NCBI GenBank assembly: GCA_963422645.2
Contig: CAXXVO010000007.1
Coordinates: 672,001-736,000 of the forward strand
DNA from: Alphaproteobacteria bacterium
GTDB taxonomy: Bacteria > Pseudomonadota > Alphaproteobacteria > UBA828
DNA: 64,000 nucleotides
Direction: 5' to 3'
Of this stretch, positions 53,916-62,277 are shown in pieces. Position 1 is the first letter of the stretch. Every line of letters begins with the position of its first letter. Position numbers and translations under genes: made by a program. Under the pieces are notes generated by a model. That model saw only the letters and a list, made by a program, of their open reading frames with translations, did not search any database and was not told the origin of the DNA.

Positions 53916-55378
53916 TCAGACGCGCGGCAATGCCCTGTCTTCATGCGGATAGGGGCTGAAATCCTCTTCGAGCTTCGACAGCAGGAAAAATATGTCTTCG
54001 GCCGTATTGGTGACGAGAACGACGTTCAATAGGTCAGTCTTGTCCAATTTCAGATCCGATTCCATGTATTTGCCGCGCAATCTGCGCATGATCTCGCCGC
54101 GGTCGCCCGACAACGCGTTCGCGATATCCCAGGACGTCTCGTCATCGCTCTCCATCGCGTGGTCCAGGGCGAGGAACACGCTGTCCACGCCCTCACACAT
54201 GCTCTCCCGAAACTGCTTCAACTCCGGTCGGTCGCCGATGTCGAGAAGCGCACCGCACATGACCGACCCGGAGTCCGCCAGCCACGTGAGCATCTTCTGA
54301 CGGCTGAGCAGCGCATTGCGATCCTCGACTGCCTGCATGGGATGAAGCGGTTGCAAGTCCGTCAGGAACTCCTCGATTTCGGTCATCAGGGTGCGCGACG
54401 CATCCCGGAGCGGGCGTACGTCCTCGCCCTCCCGAACGAGCTCGAAATACCGAATTTGCATCCTGAACGCGCGCCGCTGCTCCAGGTCGGCCAGCGCCAG
54501 CGATGTTTCGACATCGACCGTCGCATGACCGTGGATGAACTGCGCGCGCGACAGCTCGTCGATTTCCGATGCGGGCCACAGCCTCTCGAGGATGCGGGTC
54601 GATGGGCCCAGGACGGCGAGCATGATCGGCACCGGGACCACGGCCGTGATGACATAGACGAGGGCCAGTCGCTGGGGCAGGTCGAAGCCGGTCGCATCGA
54701 TCACCGCCTTGATCGACGGGACGCCCAAATGGATTTCGGCGTAGAGCAGCGGGATGACCGCTGCGCAGATCAGCGCATTGACGATCACCATGTACATGAC
54801 GACCTGGCGCGAACGCCCGGTCAGGTTGGCCGACAGCACGGCGAGGATCGCGCCTGAGCCTATGTAGCTCCCGTAGATGGTCATGATGGCCTGATCGACG
54901 GAGATTATGCCGACCGTCGCCAGGCTAATGCCGAAAACGGAGACTGCACCCGAGGACTGCACTATGAAGGTCAACACGGCCGCGACGACGAACGCGAGAA
55001 CGAGCGACTGCCCGGTTCCCTCCACCATCTCCCGGAACCAGGGCTCCTCGGCCAGCGGCGCCGCCGCCTCCCTGAGGAGCATCAGGCCGAGGATGATCAT
55101 GGCCCCGCCCAGGAACGACCCGGCGATGGCCCGGTACCGCGCCAGCCTCTCGCTGGCCACCACCGCGCCCGCAAGGCCGATGACATAGAGTGCGGCCACC
55201 TTGATGTCGAAGGTGACGATCATGACGAGGCCCGTCACGCCGATGTACCCGCCCAGGATCATCGCCAGGGCGCCGCTCATGGTGGTGAGCCGCGAGCGCA
55301 GGATGCTGACCACGATGAAGGTCAGCGCGGTCATGCTCTGGGTGATGCCGCCGCCGAGCGTTCCCCAAAGGAGCGCCG
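53916..55378 (-). pseudogene. Na+/Pi-cotransporter-family gene, 5' end missing at the recombinase-element junction
   Basis: Hydrophobic protein with two QS motifs (ITQSMTA, IVQSSGA) and a helical C-terminus; homologous frame begins mid-domain at the AT junction. Confidence 0.8.
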
Positions 55379-55446
55379 ATGACGCCCTGAACGCAAAAGG
55401 TAACTTCCGCTTCGAACGTCAGATTGTGGAATGGCGAGACCGTCCC

Positions 55447-55476
55447 TTGACTGACTTGCGCCGCAAACGGTAATAT
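55447..55476 (+). promoter_or_regulatory. Putative sigma70 promoter of the recombinase element
   Basis: TTGACT-N18-TAATAT just upstream of the first ORF. Confidence 0.55.
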
Positions 55477-55487
55477 TCTTATGGCAA

Positions 55488-55817
55488 ATGATCCGGTCAA
55501 CAAGATCCCAGAAGGTCGAGCGGCTCAATGCCGCCTACACGCTGCTCGCCCAGGGCGCCACGGCGAGCGAAGCCGTGGCACGGCTGTCGCAGCGCTTCGG
55601 GCTGTCGCAGCGTCAGTCCTATCGCTACGTCCAGGACGCGCGCGCCATGGGCCAGCCGGCCGAGCCGACCGAAGAGCTGATCCCGATCACCATCAAGATT
55701 CCAGGCACTCTGGCGGAGACCTTGCGAGCCCACGCCAGGAGCAGCGGCCACTCCATCGGGGAGATCGTCGCGCGGGCGCTGAGACGCTTTTTATCGGACG
55801 CGGATCGGCATGGCTGA
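55488..55817 (+). CDS. Small DNA-binding protein (HTH plus ribbon-helix-helix-like)
   Basis: LSQRFGLSQRQSYRYV helix-turn-helix; ITIKIP…LRAHARSSGHSIGEIVARAL RHH-like. Confidence 0.75.
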   Translation: MIRSTRSQKVERLNAAYTLLAQGATASEAVARLSQRFGLSQRQSYRYVQDARAMGQPAEPTEELIPITIKIPGTLAETLRAHARSSGHSIGEIVARALRRFLSDADRHG

Positions 55818-56282
55818 ACGTCGCTTGGGCGCTCGGCCCACGGTTCACCTCGCTTATGCCTTCGATCGTCTGCTCGACGCCAAACTCCACAACGCCTACG
55901 CGATCCTGGTGCCCGATCAAACTCACAAAACAGTCATGGTCCCCGCGGTTCTGAGCCACCCCGTGGCATGAAACAGGAGCGGTTCGGCTGACGTTTTCCT
56001 TGCGCTTGCACCCATTTGCCGTGTCAGGATGGGTATTGGCGGAGGTGGGGACGTGTGAGCGTCGTTATATCGGTGACGTAGTTCCCGATGACAAAACTGC
56101 TTCCGGCGGCCGGCTCCGCACCCCGTATTGTACCCGGCCCGTGGCCGTGGACGCGCGGCAAATTGCACCGCACCCGCTCGTCGGATGCGTGTTCTTCCGA
56201 CCGCTGTCCCCGCCTCCACCGTGGCGATGCCACGGCGTGATCGTACGCCGCCGTGGCGAGAGCGCAAATGAGGAGGAAGGCG

Positions 56283-57533
56283 ATGAAGACGGAAGGCTTG
56301 CACGTCGTCCGGCCGCGCGCGGCGGGTCTGGACGTGCACAAGATGGAGATCACCGCGACGGTTCGCCTCTGTGAGGGCGAGGGTGAGCCGGTGGTGGAGA
56401 CGCGCTGCTTCGGCACGCTGCCGAGCGGTCTGGAGGAGATGGTCGCGTGGCTGACCGGTCACGGCGTCGAGGCTGCGGTGATGGAAGGGACCGGGGTCTA
56501 CTGGCAGGCGCCCTTCGCGGCCCTGGAGGCGGCCGGGCTCGAGGCGATCCTGGTGCATGCGCGTCAGGTGAAGCAGTTGAAGGGGCGCAAGACCGACGTG
56601 GCGGACAGCGTGTGGCTGGCCTGCGTGTGCCAGTTCGGGCTCTGCACGCCTTCCCACGTTCCGCCTGAGCCGTTCCGGGAGCTGCGCGCACTGAGCCGCC
56701 AGCGCCGCGTCCTGGTCAGGCAGCGCTCCGCCGTGCGCAACCGCGTGCAGAAGATCATCGACCGCGCCGGTGCGCGCATCGGCGGCATCCTCTCCGACGT
56801 CTTCGGCGTCAACGGCCGGAAGATCCTCGACGGCCTGGCGCAGGGGACGGCGCGCGAGGTCATCCTCGCCTCGCTCACCAGCCACGTTGCGAACAAGCTG
56901 GAGGGGCTCGGCGAGGCGCTCACCCTGAGCCTGGGCGACAACGACCGCTTCATGCTCAACGACCTGCTGGAGGAGCATGACGCGCTTGAGGCGCGCATCG
57001 CGTCCTACACCAGGAAGATCGACGGGCAGATGACACCGTGGGAGGAGCAGCTCCGTCTGCTGACCACCATCCCCGGCATCGACCGCACCGCCGCCTCGAC
57101 CATCCTCATCGAGATCGGCCCCGACATCGGCGTGTTCGCCTCCAAGGAGCACTTCGCCGCCTGGGCCGGGCTCTGCCCCGGCAACAACGAGAGCGGGGGC
57201 AAGCGCCGCAACGCACGCACCCGCATGGGCTCCAAGACCCTGCGCGCCTGCCTCGTCGAGTGTGCCCACGGCGCGGCCCGAACCAAGGGGTGCCAGTTCG
57301 AGGCTCATCACCGCGCCCTCGCCGCCCGGCGCGGCTACAAGCGCGCCATCGTCGCCGGCGCTCACAAGATGCTGCGCATCATCTATGTGGTGCTCAAGAC
57401 CGGCAGGCCCTACTACGACCGCACGGCCGACTACGACGCTCTGATGGTCAAGCGCAACGCTCCTCGGTGGATCCGCATGCTCCGCCGCTACGGCTACATC
57501 GAGCCCGTAGGCGCGGAACTCAAGGCCGCCTGA
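56283..57533 (+). CDS. IS110 transposase (copy 2)
   Basis: Same translation as 20792-22042. Confidence 0.95.
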   Translation: MKTEGLHVVRPRAAGLDVHKMEITATVRLCEGEGEPVVETRCFGTLPSGLEEMVAWLTGHGVEAAVMEGTGVYWQAPFAALEAAGLEAILVHARQVKQLKGRKTDVADSVWLACVCQFGLCTPSHVPPEPFRELRALSRQRRVLVRQRSAVRNRVQKIIDRAGARIGGILSDVFGVNGRKILDGLAQGTAREVILASLTSHVANKLEGLGEALTLSLGDNDRFMLNDLLEEHDALEARIASYTRKIDGQMTPWEEQLRLLTTIPGIDRTAASTILIEIGPDIGVFASKEHFAAWAGLCPGNNESGGKRRNARTRMGSKTLRACLVECAHGAARTKGCQFEAHHRALAARRGYKRAIVAGAHKMLRIIYVVLKTGRPYYDRTADYDALMVKRNAPRWIRMLRRYGYIEPVGAELKAA

Positions 57534-58051
57534 GCGGCCCGCATCTCGTCAGCCGGCTACGCGGGACCGCTTCGGACCACATCGGGGAAGTCCACCGCTC
57601 GTCTCCGCCGCGCCGACCCTGGCGGTCTCAGCCAACGCCGTGACCTCGGGGTTGGAGCGTCACCGCGCGTCCCTCGCCAGAATCTGTTTCACGGCAAAAC
57701 AGTCATGGTCCCCGCGGTTCTGAGCCACCCCGTGGCATGAAACAGGAGCGGTTCGGCTGACGTTTTCCTTGCGCTTGCACCCATTTGCCGTGTCAGGATG
57801 GGTATTGGCGGAGGTGGGGACGTGTGAGCGTCGTTATATCGGTGACGTAGTTCCCGATGACAAAACTGCTTCCGGCGGCCGGCTCCGCACCCCGTATTGT
57901 ACCCGGCCCGTGGCCGTGGACGCGCGGCAAATTGCACCGCACCCGCTCGTCGGATGCGTGTTCTTCCGACCGCTGTCCCCGCCTCCACCGTGGCGATGCC
58001 ACGGCGTGATCGTACGCCGCCGTGGCGAGAGCGCAAATGAGGAGGAAGGCG

Positions 58052-59302
58052 ATGAAGACGGAAGGCTTGCACGTCGTCCGGCCGCGCGCGGCGGGTCTGG
58101 ACGTGCACAAGATGGAGATCACCGCGACGGTTCGCCTCTGTGAGGGCGAGGGTGAGCCGGTGGTGGAGACGCGCTGCTTCGGCACGCTGCCGAGCGGTCT
58201 GGAGGAGATGGTCGCGTGGCTGACCGGTCACGGCGTCGAGGCTGCGGTGATGGAAGGGACCGGGGTCTACTGGCAGGCGCCCTTCGCGGCCCTGGAGGCG
58301 GCCGGGCTCGAGGCGATCCTGGTGCATGCGCGTCAGGTGAAGCAGTTGAAGGGGCGCAAGACCGACGTGGCGGACAGCGTGTGGCTGGCCTGCGTGTGCC
58401 AGTTCGGGCTCTGCACGCCTTCCCACGTTCCGCCTGAGCCGTTCCGGGAGCTGCGCGCACTGAGCCGCCAGCGCCGCGTCCTGGTCAGGCAGCGCTCCGC
58501 CGTGCGCAACCGCGTGCAGAAGATCATCGACCGCGCCGGTGCGCGCATCGGCGGCATCCTCTCCGACGTCTTCGGCGTCAACGGCCGGAAGATCCTCGAC
58601 GGCCTGGCGCAGGGGACGGCGCGCGAGGTCATCCTCGCCTCGCTCACCAGCCACGTTGCGAACAAGCTGGAGGGGCTCGGCGAGGCGCTCACCCTGAGCC
58701 TGGGCGACAACGACCGCTTCATGCTCAACGACCTGCTGGAGGAGCATGACGCGCTTGAGGCGCGCATCGCGTCCTACACCAGGAAGATCGACGGGCAGAT
58801 GACACCGTGGGAGGAGCAGCTCCGTCTGCTGACCACCATCCCCGGCATCGACCGCACCGCCGCCTCGACCATCCTCATCGAGATCGGCCCCGACATCGGC
58901 GTGTTCGCCTCCAAGGAGCACTTCGCCGCCTGGGCCGGGCTCTGCCCCGGCAACAACGAGAGCGGGGGCAAGCGCCGCAACGCACGCACCCGCATGGGCT
59001 CCAAGACCCTGCGCGCCTGCCTCGTCGAGTGTGCCCACGGCGCGGCCCGAACCAAGGGGTGCCAGTTCGAGGCTCATCACCGCGCCCTCGCCGCCCGGCG
59101 CGGCTACAAGCGCGCCATCGTCGCCGGCGCTCACAAGATGCTGCGCATCATCTATGTGGTGCTCAAGACCGGCAGGCCCTACTACGACCGCACGGCCGAC
59201 TACGACGCTCTGATGGTCAAGCGCAACGCTCCTCGGTGGATCCGCATGCTCCGCCGCTACGGCTACATCGAGCCCGTAGGCGCGGAACTCAAGGCCGCCT
59301 GA
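58052..59302 (+). CDS. IS110 transposase (copy 3)
   Basis: Same translation as 20792-22042. Confidence 0.95.
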   Translation: MKTEGLHVVRPRAAGLDVHKMEITATVRLCEGEGEPVVETRCFGTLPSGLEEMVAWLTGHGVEAAVMEGTGVYWQAPFAALEAAGLEAILVHARQVKQLKGRKTDVADSVWLACVCQFGLCTPSHVPPEPFRELRALSRQRRVLVRQRSAVRNRVQKIIDRAGARIGGILSDVFGVNGRKILDGLAQGTAREVILASLTSHVANKLEGLGEALTLSLGDNDRFMLNDLLEEHDALEARIASYTRKIDGQMTPWEEQLRLLTTIPGIDRTAASTILIEIGPDIGVFASKEHFAAWAGLCPGNNESGGKRRNARTRMGSKTLRACLVECAHGAARTKGCQFEAHHRALAARRGYKRAIVAGAHKMLRIIYVVLKTGRPYYDRTADYDALMVKRNAPRWIRMLRRYGYIEPVGAELKAA

Positions 59303-59500
59303 GCGGCCCGCATCTCGTCAGCCGGCTACGCGGGACCGCTTCGGACCACATCGGGGAAGTCCACCGCTCGTCTCCGCCGCGCCGACCCTGGCGGTCTCAG
59401 CCAACGCCGTGACCTCGGGGTTGGAGCGTCACCGCGCGTCCCTCGCCAGAATCTGTTTCACGGCAAATCCCGGTCCGAGCGCAGGACATAGGAGACGACC

Positions 59501-61489
59501 ATGAAGATCGCAGCCATTTACGCGCGGGTCTCCGGCGAGCGGCAGAGAGATGACAACACGATAGCGAGCCAGACCGAGGCCCTGATCGCCTACGCCGAGG
59601 ACCACGGTTACAGCGTCGCGCCCGACATGATCATTGAAGATGACGGCTATACCGGCGCCGTTCTCGAACGCCCGGGGCTCGAGCGGGTCAGGGATCTCGC
59701 CGCGGAAGGGCGCATCGACACGGTGCTGGTCCATGCCCCGGACCGTATGAGCCGGCGCTATGCCTACCAGGTTCTGATCATCGAGGAGCTGGCCCGTCAG
59801 GGCGTCGAGACCGTGTTCTTGAGAGCGCCGTCGATGGAAACCCCGGAAGATCATCTGCTCGTCCAGTTCCAGGGCATGATTGCGGAATACGAGCGCGCGC
59901 AAATCCTGGAGCGTTCCCGGCGCGGCAAGCGACATCGGGCGCGACGCGGCGAAATCGCCGTCCTCGGCGGCGCGCCCTATGGCTACCGCTACCACAAGAA
60001 AACCCCGGACAGCGATGCGTTCTACGAAATCGTCGAGCCGCAGGCGTCGGTGGTTCGCGAGGTTTACCGCTGCTACACCTGCGATCACATGAGCATCGGC
60101 GCGATCACCTGCAGGCTCAATGAGCGCGCGGTACCCACCTCCACCGGGCGCTCGCGCTGGGAACGCTCGACGGTGTGGGCGATGCTCCGCAATCCGGCGT
60201 ACAAGGGGAAAGCCTGTTTCGGCAAGACCCGCCAGATGCCGCGTAAATGTGTGACACGTCCTCTGCGCCTGCGCCGCGGCGTGGCCAGCGGCACGACCGG
60301 CGGTCACGAAAAACCGCGTGAGGAGTGGATCGAGATCCCGGTGCCGGCGATCGTCAGCGAAGAGACCTTCGCCCTGGCCGAAGAGCGGCTGGAGATGAAC
60401 AAGATCCACGCGCCGCGTCGCACGAAGACGCCCAGCGTGCTCCAGGGACTGGTCTCGTGCGGCAAATGCGGCTACGCGCTGTCTCGCACATCGGCCCAGA
60501 CGAGTGCCCGCAAGATCTCCTATTATCGCTGCCTGGGTTCTGACTCTTGGCGCCATCTCAACGGACCGGTGTGCGACAGTCGGCCGGTGCGCCAGGACTT
60601 GCTCGATGACGTCGTCTGGGGCGAAGTGGTCCGCCTGCTCGAGGATCCAGCACTGATCGGCGCCGAGATCGACCGGCGACTACAGGCGGCCCGCGCTTCC
60701 GATCCAAACCAGCAGCGCGAGAACGACCTGCGGCACCGTCTGATCCGGGTCCGAAAAAGCATCGACCGCCTGGTCAACGCCTATCAGGAGGAGTTGATTA
60801 CAATCGATGAACTGCGCGACAGAACGTCCGAGCTCCGTCGTCAGGATCAGGCTCTGAATCGCGAACTGCAATCCACCGTCGATCGGGCGAAGGATCGCGA
60901 GACCTATCTCCGGCTCGCCGAGACGCTGACCGGCTTTCTGGCGCGGCTGCACTCGTCCGCCGAAACCCTGGACATCGCCGAACGGCAGCGCATCGTCCGG
61001 CTCATCGTGAAGGAGGTGTTGGTCACCGAGGACAAAATCACCATTCGCCATTCAATCCCAATCTCGGGATCGCCAGGCGGCGGTCCAGACCCGTCGAAAC
61101 CCGGCAACCACAGCACCGAAGGCGAAGGTTGCCTTTTGCGTTCAGGGCGTCATCACCGACCCTTGCGGCGTTCCCCGCAGGTTGTCCCGCCACTCTCCAG
61201 CCTCCATGACGCCGGCGCTCAACCACTTGATGATCAGCCTGATAACCCGCTTGTCCCCGATCCGGTGCTCAAGAAACCGGACCAGCCAGTCCCTCGAAAC
61301 CGTGTCGAAGAATTTGCGGATGTCACAATCGACCACCCAGTTAATCTTGCGCTGTCTAATGCCGACCGCGAGCGCATCGAGCGCATTATGCGCCCCACGC
61401 CCGGGCCGGAACCCGTAGCTGAACCCCAGGAACTCCGCCTCGTAAATCGGCGTCAGGATGTAACTACCCAGGTACCCCGCGAGCTCTGA
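59501..61489 (+). CDS. Large serine recombinase; the ~110 residues after 61153 are read-through into flanking DNA
   Basis: IYARVS catalytic motif, DDGYTG…RPGL, DRMSR, PYGY recombinase domain, CGKCG…YYRC…C zinc ribbon, coiled coil. Confidence 0.93.
   Translation: MKIAAIYARVSGERQRDDNTIASQTEALIAYAEDHGYSVAPDMIIEDDGYTGAVLERPGLERVRDLAAEGRIDTVLVHAPDRMSRRYAYQVLIIEELARQGVETVFLRAPSMETPEDHLLVQFQGMIAEYERAQILERSRRGKRHRARRGEIAVLGGAPYGYRYHKKTPDSDAFYEIVEPQASVVREVYRCYTCDHMSIGAITCRLNERAVPTSTGRSRWERSTVWAMLRNPAYKGKACFGKTRQMPRKCVTRPLRLRRGVASGTTGGHEKPREEWIEIPVPAIVSEETFALAEERLEMNKIHAPRRTKTPSVLQGLVSCGKCGYALSRTSAQTSARKISYYRCLGSDSWRHLNGPVCDSRPVRQDLLDDVVWGEVVRLLEDPALIGAEIDRRLQAARASDPNQQRENDLRHRLIRVRKSIDRLVNAYQEELITIDELRDRTSELRRQDQALNRELQSTVDRAKDRETYLRLAETLTGFLARLHSSAETLDIAERQRIVRLIVKEVLVTEDKITIRHSIPISGSPGGGPDPSKPGNHSTEGEGCLLRSGRHHRPLRRSPQVVPPLSSLHDAGAQPLDDQPDNPLVPDPVLKKPDQPVPRNRVEEFADVTIDHPVNLALSNADRERIERIMRPTPGPEPVAEPQELRLVNRRQDVTTQVPREL
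61154..61459 (-). pseudogene. Group II intron reverse transcriptase, middle fragment (RT2-RT4)
   Basis: ILTPIYEAEFLGFSYGFRPGRGAHNAL…WVVDCDIRKFFD…GTPQGSV, cut at the AT of the following codon. Confidence 0.9.
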
Positions 61490-61608
61490 GTGCGTGCTGA
61501 TTTTGGTCGCCGTCGGCGCCGTTTCGCCGTCGGCGCGTCGCTGATCCCCGCTTGACTGTATAGGTTCTCTCGCCTATGGGTTGCACTCTCGCATGAGAGG
61601 AGCAGCCG

Positions 61609-62277
61609 GTGGGGTATTTCGGGTCGAAGGCGACGACCGGTCTGAGCCAGGCGCTGATTGCGCTGATGCCGCCGCACTCTGTCTATATCGAGAGCCATCT
61701 TGGGGGCGGGGCGCTGATGAAGCGCAAGCCTGCGGCCATGCGCTCGATCGGGATCGACCGCGACGAGCGGGCGCTTGAGGCCTTTGGCTGCGACTACCCG
61801 GTGGAGTTGGTGCACGGCTGCGCCCATTCCTTCCTGGCCTCGTTCCCGTTTCTGGGCCCGGAGCTGGTCTACAGCGATCCGCCCTATCTGCACGCGACCC
61901 GGCGTTCGTCGCAGCGCTACCGCTTCGAGTACGAGGAGGCCGACCACGTCGCGCTCCTCGAACTGCTCAAGGGTCTGCCCTGCCAGGTGATGGTCTCGGG
62001 CCACCCGTCTGCGCTCTATGACGAGCTGCTGGCGGGCTGGCGCCGGCTGGCGCTGCAGGTGACGACCCAGGCCCAGGTGCGGACCGAGGTCGTGTGGTTC
62101 AACTTCGCGCCTGACCGGGTGCACTGGGCGAGCTTCGCCGGCCGGAACTTCACCGAGCGCCAGTGCATCAAGCGCAAGGCGGCCAACTGGGGCCGGCGCT
62201 ACGAGGCCATGCCGGCGGGCGAACGCCTGGCGGTGCTGGCCGCGATCATGGCCGTCGAGGCCGACGAGGGTTCGTGA
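61609..62277 (+). CDS. Dam/D12-class N6-adenine DNA methyltransferase (short)
   Basis: YFGSK (motif X), ESHLGGGA (motif I variant), YSDPPY (motif IV), MVSG, RTEVVWFN. Confidence 0.88.
   Translation: MGYFGSKATTGLSQALIALMPPHSVYIESHLGGGALMKRKPAAMRSIGIDRDERALEAFGCDYPVELVHGCAHSFLASFPFLGPELVYSDPPYLHATRRSSQRYRFEYEEADHVALLELLKGLPCQVMVSGHPSALYDELLAGWRRLALQVTTQAQVRTEVVWFNFAPDRVHWASFAGRNFTERQCIKRKAANWGRRYEAMPAGERLAVLAAIMAVEADEGS

Follow-up and report, generated by a model that had tools for sequence, protein, structure and literature searches.

A 2.2-kb serine recombinase element adjoining group II intron reverse transcriptase motifs, with a recombinase gene apparently spanning its own attachment site

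The element in the window and its copies in the genome

Positions 55379-61153 of the window, that is, of the whole 64,000-nucleotide (nt) stretch analyzed from an alphaproteobacterium of the UBA828 lineage (contig CAXXVO010000007.1), are occupied by an insertion sequence (IS)-sized element built around a large serine recombinase (LSR) gene. Its features are listed in Table 1. Between the inverted ends lie a promoter-like site, two small open reading frames (ORF1 and ORF2) and the recombinase gene, interrupted in this copy by two tandem IS110-family units. The 20-nt arms at the two ends (55381-55400 and 61132-61151) form a perfectly complementary inverted pair with AT outside each, and joining the ends would give a palindromic attachment site attP. 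In a repeat search the same pair is reported as 43 nt at 84% complementarity, since the inner and outer neighbours of the arms are also partly symmetric. These ends are not a chance match, because they delimit five copies in this genome and are conserved in relatives from other phyla; family-wide, the conserved inverted ends measure roughly 26 bp each. The unit without IS110 is 2,238 bp long in the two copies that have this form, with a common core of 2,234 bp, and contains no phage or conjugation genes. In all these respects, that is, the arms with AT, the unit of about 2.2 kb, the gene content (now supported by Pfam and a consensus promoter match) and the palindromic joint, the preliminary description made from the window alone was right.

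Table 1. Features of the element and its flanks in the window
Feature	Positions	Strand	Basis and remarks
Left flank: 3' part of a Na+/Pi cotransporter gene	53916..55378	-	Pfam Na_Pi_cotrans; half of a secondary target site
Left crossover dinucleotide AT	55379..55380	.	The uninterrupted Na/Pi target has CA here, so AT would have been brought by the element
Left terminal inverted repeat, putative attP P' arm	55381..55410	+	Perfect to 55400, imperfect beyond; conserved in relatives
Putative C-terminal tail of the recombinase, 30 codons (55381-55470) and TAA (55471-55473)	55381..55473	+	Continues the recombinase frame across the joined ends
Sigma-70-like promoter (TTGACT, 18 nt, TAATAT) upstream of ORF1	55447..55476	+	Consensus match only; overlaps the end of the tail-coding stretch
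ORF1, 109 aa, helix-turn-helix and ribbon-helix-helix (RHH) protein	55488..55817	+	RHH_1 20.1 bits, cut-off 20.5
ORF2, 5' part, cut by IS110 just past the conserved N-terminal domain	55810..55925	+	68 aa in intact copies
IS110-family unit 1 (transposase ORF 56253-57533)	55926..57694	+	Borders ambiguous within shared CAAA
IS110-family unit 2 (ORF 58022-59302), tandem with and identical to unit 1	57695..59463	+	Repeat comparison
ORF2, 3' remainder, overlapping the recombinase start	59464..59553	+	Coordinates mapped from an intact copy
Large serine recombinase, 551 codons to the last base of the element, no internal stop	59501..61153	+	Resolvase, Recombinase and Zn_ribbon_recom
Right terminal inverted repeat, putative attP P arm	61122..61151	+	Perfect from 61132; also codes for the ...LLRSGR residues of the recombinase
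Right crossover dinucleotide AT	61152..61153	.	Sequence
Right flank: group II intron reverse transcriptase gene fragment ending at the PQG motif, inverted	61154..61456	-	RVT_1; B half of the canonical target

The recombinase has the domain composition of LSRs: an N-terminal resolvase domain with the nucleophilic serine (PF00239, Resolvase, 110 bits), followed by the Recombinase domain (PF07508) and a zinc ribbon (PF13408, Zn_ribbon_recom) with an embedded coiled coil. The catalytic serine S11 (in the motif YARVS) and the cysteines C320, C323, C344 and C358 are invariant in 43 sequences, and the nearest relative with a solved structure is SprA of SPbeta. Homologues of ORF1 are annotated in RefSeq records as RHH proteins of the CopG family. 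ORF2 has no match among Pfam or NCBIfam families; its N-terminal 40 or so residues are conserved in at least 35 of 51 distinct elements, and in intact copies it overlaps both the end of ORF1 and the beginning of the recombinase gene. The two small ORFs remain candidates for a regulator and a directionality factor, as proposed earlier.

A BLAST search of the genome with parts of the element, which had been proposed earlier, found five copies with identical ends and the same boundaries in all. Apart from the window copy, with two IS110 units and the crossover dinucleotides AT/AT (left/right), they are an intact copy without IS110 on the same contig, 92 kb upstream (AT/AT); a second intact copy, C6, also without IS110 (CT/CC); the C19 copy, located in an IS66-family transposase gene and carrying one IS110 unit (CT/TT); and the C10 copy with three units (CT/CA). 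The copies are 99.9-100% identical, and the two intact ones differ at two internal positions. The IS110 insert of the window (55926-59463) consists of two 100% identical 1,769-bp units, whose ORFs belong to the IS110 family by their matches to PF01548 (DEDD_Tnp_IS110, 83 bits) and PF02371 (Transposase_20, 75 bits); in the three interrupted copies, with one, two and three units, the insert occupies one identical position in ORF2. Since the two units separate the promoter, ORF1 and the start of ORF2 from the LSR gene, the copy in the window is unlikely to be autonomous.

The flanks of the window copy are likewise not those of a simple insertion. In three related genomes the Na/Pi cotransporter gene of the left flank runs on across the junction point, with CA and then sequence corresponding to that on the right of the C10 copy (two more distant relatives, which do not align up to the junction, were left out). 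The reverse transcriptase (RT) gene fragment of the right flank shares 87-91% identity with the sequence left of the intact copy that this contig also carries. A profile hidden Markov model search of the whole genome detected only three RVT_1 matches, all adjoining element ends: two flank the intact copy (profile positions 1-132 and 111-204), and the third adjoins the right end of the window copy. Judging from these sequences, the flanks of the window copy are halves of two different targets, brought together by recombination between copies. The third product of a three-way flank exchange, which would carry the right half of the C10-left target site, was not found; contig C23 (end 32797) stops 290 nt short of this half-site, and the gap may hide an unassembled repeat or a sixth copy of the element. 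Thus the minimal element described earlier is real, but its copy in the window is interrupted by IS110 and has chimeric flanks, the Na/Pi gene on the left and RT on the right.

One could suppose that the window feature is a dead scar of a family that is no longer mobile in this genome, the copies having been spread by duplication and rearrangement. The interrupted and chimeric state of the window copy and the presence of IS110 in three of the five copies agree with this. Two copies, however, are intact, and the nearly identical copies have six unrelated flanks, precise borders and, in the empty sites, a single target dinucleotide, so that we regard this explanation as improbable.

The genome contains several other repeats. 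The IS110-family element is present in 47 near-full copies, with CAA(A/G) at the right of all sites, and forms head-to-tail arrays at six of them (three of two units, two of three, and one of five). More than 100 identical copies were found of the IS66-family transposase gene (DDE_Tnp_IS66, DUF6444 and zf-IS66; G000 C23:29343-30848, or L141:544-2049), one of which, the C19 copy, is interrupted by the LSR element. The LSR element itself is present once in another genome of this genus, at 95% identity and without the first 275 nt (G004:C1:380709-382664, L012). To the right of the window copy, the RT fragment of 306 bp is followed by other repeats (61460-62150) that occur in dozens of copies with 88-99% identity, forming a nest of mobile elements. 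Together, the LSR element and the swarms of IS110 and IS66 explain at least one broken gene and inter-contig rearrangements in this genome.

The family, its target and the crossover dinucleotide

Comparison of the 551-aa protein with 185,579 species genomes gave at least 519 relatives confirmed by tblastn, of which the best 80 were kept. They are 61-88% identical to the query and come from Alpha- and Gammaproteobacteria, Acidobacteriota, Binatia, Gemmatimonadota and other groups. Both ends could be mapped in 60 of these 80 loci, nine others running off a contig end and 11 having no anchor match; the mapped relatives are 2.2-2.3 kb long and have conserved ends. In 58 of the 60 the element adjoins the motif PQGG-x-x-SP of a group II intron RT gene, the insertion point lying between PQGG-x and x-SP-x-L-x-N, which does not support the view that the element has no preferred target. 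The consensus of the target and the arms of the element have in common the inner sequence C-A/T-C-N-C-C. By motif classification of the flanks, 26 loci are forward insertions, 18 are reverse, six are RT/RT chimeras, eight have RT on one side only and two have no RT; the 26 forward and 18 reverse cases agree with the earlier suggestion that the element inserts in either orientation. The six RT/RT loci combine target halves in impossible ways and, by their sequence, are products of flank exchange between copies. Such exchanged flanks show that rearrangements take place; inversion by the recombinase itself, also suggested earlier, would be a putative further activity.

The same arrangement can be recognized in annotated replicons. 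For instance, in RefSeq plasmids of Bradyrhizobium and Mesorhizobium, ORFs annotated as "reverse transcriptase domain" or "group II intron maturase" lie on both sides of a CopG-RHH gene and a "recombinase family protein" gene. Plasmids of Rhodococcus and Streptomyces encode LSRs that are 49-50% identical and have an RT/maturase ORF on one side. In the metatranscriptome X17, contigs cover parts of a 95-99% similar element (L001:2901-5338). Where these contigs continue past the right end, their loose end resembles the inverted PQG half of an RT target, which places a close relative in an RT gene in this sample too.

No paper on an LSR insertion sequence targeting intron RT genes was found in the literature searched, but the supplementary tables of PMC10083194 may hold members of the family; the accessible part of PMC4496777 contains no description of it. 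The possibility raised at the outset, that the element belongs to an already catalogued family with such an att structure, thus found no support in this literature. Apparently, this is a widespread family of serine-recombinase insertion sequences homing on group II intron RT genes that is undescribed in print.

The dinucleotides outside the arms differ among the five copies of this genome; hence AT is not part of the element. The element had been credited with a fixed symmetric AT crossover of its own, which does not hold, as AT stands at both ends in only two of the five copies and the relatives vary. Among 44 simple insertions, read in the RT sense, the left and right pairs are AT/AT in 15, GT/GT in seven, GC/GC in two, and TT/TT and CT/CT in one each, the other 18, which may include hidden flank exchanges or errors of anchoring register, being unequal. 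In the RT target, the crossover pair forms the first two bases of the hydrophobic codon that precedes SP. GT in forward copies has its counterpart in AC in reverse copies, as expected if the core alone sets the orientation and symmetric AT allows both; for the A118 integrase, PMC3556126 states that orientation is set by the core alone and that a symmetric core leads to both orientations.

These data also bear on the notion of an LSR transposon of a general, multi-target type that lacks a preferred target and crosses over at a symmetric AT of its own. In this genome, AT does flank two of the five copies on both sides, and four of the six distinct sites identified are in genes other than RT. These secondary sites, namely, the Na/Pi transporter gene, the IS66 transposase gene and two other genes, nevertheless resemble the RT site, and both RT loci of the genome are already occupied. 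Given, in addition, the RT motif at 58 of 60 relatives and the variety of end pairs in the 44 simple insertions, of which AT/AT makes up only 15, this notion is highly improbable.

For five insertions the unequal end pairs could be compared with verified empty sites. The IS66 gene site is TT in 101 exact empty copies, and the occupied one has CT on the left and TT on the right. The C6 site, with CT on the left and CC on the right, is CC in three of four relatives and CT in one. The Na/Pi site is CA in all three relatives, and its occupied halves carry AT on the left and CA on the right. The other two insertions are in introns of one Acidobacteriota genome: that of L097 has CT on the left and TT on the right, and six identical empty introns have CT; that of L100 has AT on the left and TT on the right, and one empty copy, 98% identical, has AT. 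For L027, L083 and L051, searches for the empty site found only the occupied copy. Since the end pairs at the five verified sites are unequal, mismatched core dinucleotides seem to be tolerated in the crossover. A shift of the crossover register by one base in either direction was considered and rejected, as the donor and target cores would still not be identical at the IS66 and C6 sites. The native pair of the C10-left site is CT in four of four relatives, which makes this site a possible source of the CT lineage.

When the donor and target pairs differ, one end would keep the pair of the previous site and the other would keep that of the target. Cleavage with a 3' overhang would leave both junctions as heteroduplexes of the donor and target pairs, and the next replication would separate them into two reciprocal types.

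Alternatively, the unequal dinucleotides could have arisen after insertion, by point mutation or by an exchange of sequence among copies, without any recombination at mismatched cores. Flank exchange between copies is real, some of the 44 simple insertions may be hidden chimeras, and one relative does carry CT at the C6 site. Homologous exchange within the element, however, cannot part a dinucleotide from its flank, and unrelated flanks repeatedly carry one foreign pair, namely, CT at three left ends in this genome and TT at two right ends in the second one. Moreover, the Na/Pi site differs at both positions of the dinucleotide, and no shifted register yields identity. We therefore favor mismatched-core recombination, while retaining this alternative as a serious minority possibility.

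The recombinase gene across the joined ends

The long recombinase ORF is found in 59 of the 60 mapped loci, and in none of these 59 does it end inside the element; the stop is reached 5-602 nt past the right end. In the window, for instance, the frame continues to 61489 through antisense RT sequence. The frame of each locus was read across a virtual joint, in which the right end is linked through the dinucleotide to the left end. The tail obtained in this way is conserved: K, F, R, D and R residues are invariant, and the stop has a single location. In 47 of 48 distinct elements the tail is in phase with the LSR frame, and differences in length are whole codons. When the left ends were examined alone, 47 of the 48 unique sequences had the first stop of the junction frame after 29-31 codons, and the other two frames stop early. 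In 32 ungapped sequences of left-end nucleotides 28-90, the entropy at codon positions 1, 2 and 3 is 0.94, 0.78 and 1.32, and codon differences of a single base are synonymous at a fraction of 0.59 in the junction frame versus 0.15 and 0.11 in the others. The tail is also retained in actinobacterial relatives.

We infer that this stretch of the left end is under codon-level selection and that attP lies inside the recombinase gene. This location of attP, missed in the earlier description, is suggested by the 59 of 59 ORFs without an internal stop and the codon-level signature of the left end. Because the last 29-31 codons and the stop are at the left end, the full recombinase would be encoded only where ends are joined, that is, in a circle or by an abutting neighbour. 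Integrated copies would produce the recombinase body with a random tail encoded by the flank. Translation of the tail by read-in from the RT frame can be dismissed, as this frame is in another phase and stops after three codons.

A natural 609-aa frame, which runs from one element into its neighbour (L125), was modeled with AlphaFold2 (AF2); the mean predicted local distance difference test score (pLDDT) is 69.3. The model is predicted as a canonical LSR with coiled-coil helices at 404-489 and a disordered linker at 523-585, and the tail as a short strand (588-595, pLDDT 53-64). Docking of the tail on the LSR body scored 0.44 against 0.01 for the best control, which weakly supports a contact, the mark being reached by 58 of 80 solved complexes and two of 110 mismatched pairs, and at scores of 0.60 or lower by only seven of the 80 and by both passing mismatches. 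In the docking runs, contacts agreed by at least 66% and the pLDDT of the partner was at least 52.

Taken together, these observations make it likely that the window contains a copy of an IS-sized LSR element with a 2,234-bp core that targets the RT motif and look-alike sites, has crossover dinucleotides derived from the target, and carries a recombinase gene split at attP, the copy in the window being crippled. By analogy with LSR chemistry, the ends would be the two arms of attP, and the element would excise as a circle and integrate by a 2-bp staggered exchange. The end dinucleotide would be the start of the target codon (AT, GT, CT, GC or TT) and not a fixed part of the element.

A number of observations speak against this interpretation. 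The tail-coding stretch overlaps attP and the promoter-like site, the first 26 or so nucleotides of the left end being the inverted repeat and nucleotides 67-96 matching the promoter, and hence part of its conservation is at the DNA level. No database protein joining the LSR body and the tail was found: the search with the tail gave six ORFs (P0001-P0006; 98-244 aa), which begin in flanking sequence, running antisense to the RT gene, end at the conserved tail stop and are probably spurious predictions, and among the best 150 of 46,186 representative hits of the recombinase, none aligns past residue 584 of the 609-aa query. No circle junction was found in three Logan contig sets (X1, X6 and X17), where contigs drop rare forms, and the contigs in other collections that do contain joined ends (see below) are not circles. 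The donor pair stays on one side within each genome, on the left in three of three cases here and on the right in two of two in the second genome, and plain 50:50 segregation does not predict such constancy. Finally, a single change in the core dinucleotide abolishes recombination by the A118 LSR, as PMC3556126 reports, and tolerance of mismatches would therefore be unusual among characterised LSRs.

The first two of these points, along with the modest pLDDT of the tail, would fit an explanation in which the left-end frame is not translated at all, its conservation reflects binding sites of the recombinase and the promoter of ORF1, and the LSR simply ends at whatever stop the flank offers. Such constraints, however, would not account for third-position variability and a high synonymous fraction in the junction frame only, nor for the fixed place of the stop and the whole-codon length changes, with the other frames closing early. 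We consider an untranslated left end unlikely and prefer a split gene.

The joined-end pattern was found in one genome contig and seven metagenome contigs. In the genome contig, from a metagenome-assembled alphaproteobacterial genome (L119, 1600-1637), two family members with 68% DNA identity lie head to tail in one RT target in the order B-AT-E1-CT-E2-AT-B'; consequently, the recombinase frame of the first element enters the tail-coding end of the second. Evidently, the attR or attL of an occupied site can serve as a target for another member of the family. In L125 the abutting elements encode ORF1 proteins that are 90% identical. The end of the contig truncates L123, and in L120 the sequence continues for just 23 nt past the junction. 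The metagenome contig L124 (591-628) contains two left ends head to head, one with a one-base insertion in the tail-coding stretch. In three further metagenome contigs (L121, L122 and L126) the left end of an intact element adjoins a 26-nt end followed by a decayed-looking right end without a recombinase gene, which may be a remnant or a non-autonomous derivative. The reading of these contigs as circles was rejected: the head-to-tail cases involve two different family members, and the others are neighbours or remnants.

A more speculative proposal, which we put forward tentatively and with less confidence than the above interpretation, is that the split of the gene acts as a directionality switch. 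An integrated copy would produce only a tail-less recombinase that favors excision or is nearly silent, and the excised circle would rebuild the full gene, whose product drives integration. Under this proposal no separate directionality factor would be needed. Tolerance of mismatches would then let the element move among RT codon variants and look-alike sites, one end retaining a 2-bp "memory" of the last site.

If these predictions are correct, the family is a compact self-contained serine-recombinase system homing on a group II intron, that is, a parasite of a parasite, for which the intron RT motif offers a ready-made, harmless and multi-copy landing site. A split gene would be a new way of setting the direction of recombination. 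Mismatched-core tolerance, if true, breaks a rule of the integrases used in genome engineering and explains changes of target. New from this window are the verified secondary insertions, pointing to a mismatch-tolerant crossover with 2-bp inheritance, and the IS110-disabled, rearranged copy.

Comparison with known systems

The transposons Tn4451 and Tn5397 both end in GA. The element described here resembles Tn4451/Tn4453 (TnpX), Tn5397 (TndX) and the multi-targeting LSR clade in the use of an LSR as transposase, the many targets and the expected circular intermediate; according to Durrant et al. (2022, PMC10083194), DUF4368 is present in 63% of that clade. In contrast to the TnpX/TndX-like clade, the element lacks DUF4368, fixed GA or TT ends and cargo, and it is IS-sized, with inverted ends of about 26 bp, one preferred RT target and an attP that would lie inside the recombinase ORF. 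We therefore do not assign it to TnpX/TndX, since both the 662-aa and the 609-aa forms of the protein contain only the three Pfam domains listed above and no DUF4368.

The IS607 family also moves insertion sequences by a serine recombinase with exchange over 2-bp identity. Its TnpA, as PMC6188088 describes it, is small, has the DNA-binding domain first, lacks inverted ends and uses a fixed GG. Membership in this family was rejected: the match to NF033518 scores 34.8 bits with a cut-off of 110, the catalytic domain comes first, the ends are inverted and the dinucleotide is variable. Phage serine integrases (A118, phiC31, Bxb1 and SprA of SPbeta) have the same domain architecture and inverted-repeat att sites around a 2-bp core, whereas the element has no phage genes, its core dinucleotide is variable and mismatches are seemingly tolerated.

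A parallel to the split gene is offered by the "suicidal" integrases of the SSV type, in which the recombination site is within the recombinase gene and integration splits it, as comparison of the ends suggests for the element. PMC8371274 describes these as tyrosine recombinases carried by viruses and plasmids of archaea, and reports them as confined to that domain. The enzyme considered here, in contrast, is a bacterial serine recombinase that would lose only its last 30 or so residues, and thus falls outside the SSV type. With a gene that spans attP, a serine recombinase would be a bacterial equivalent of the suicidal integrases of archaea.

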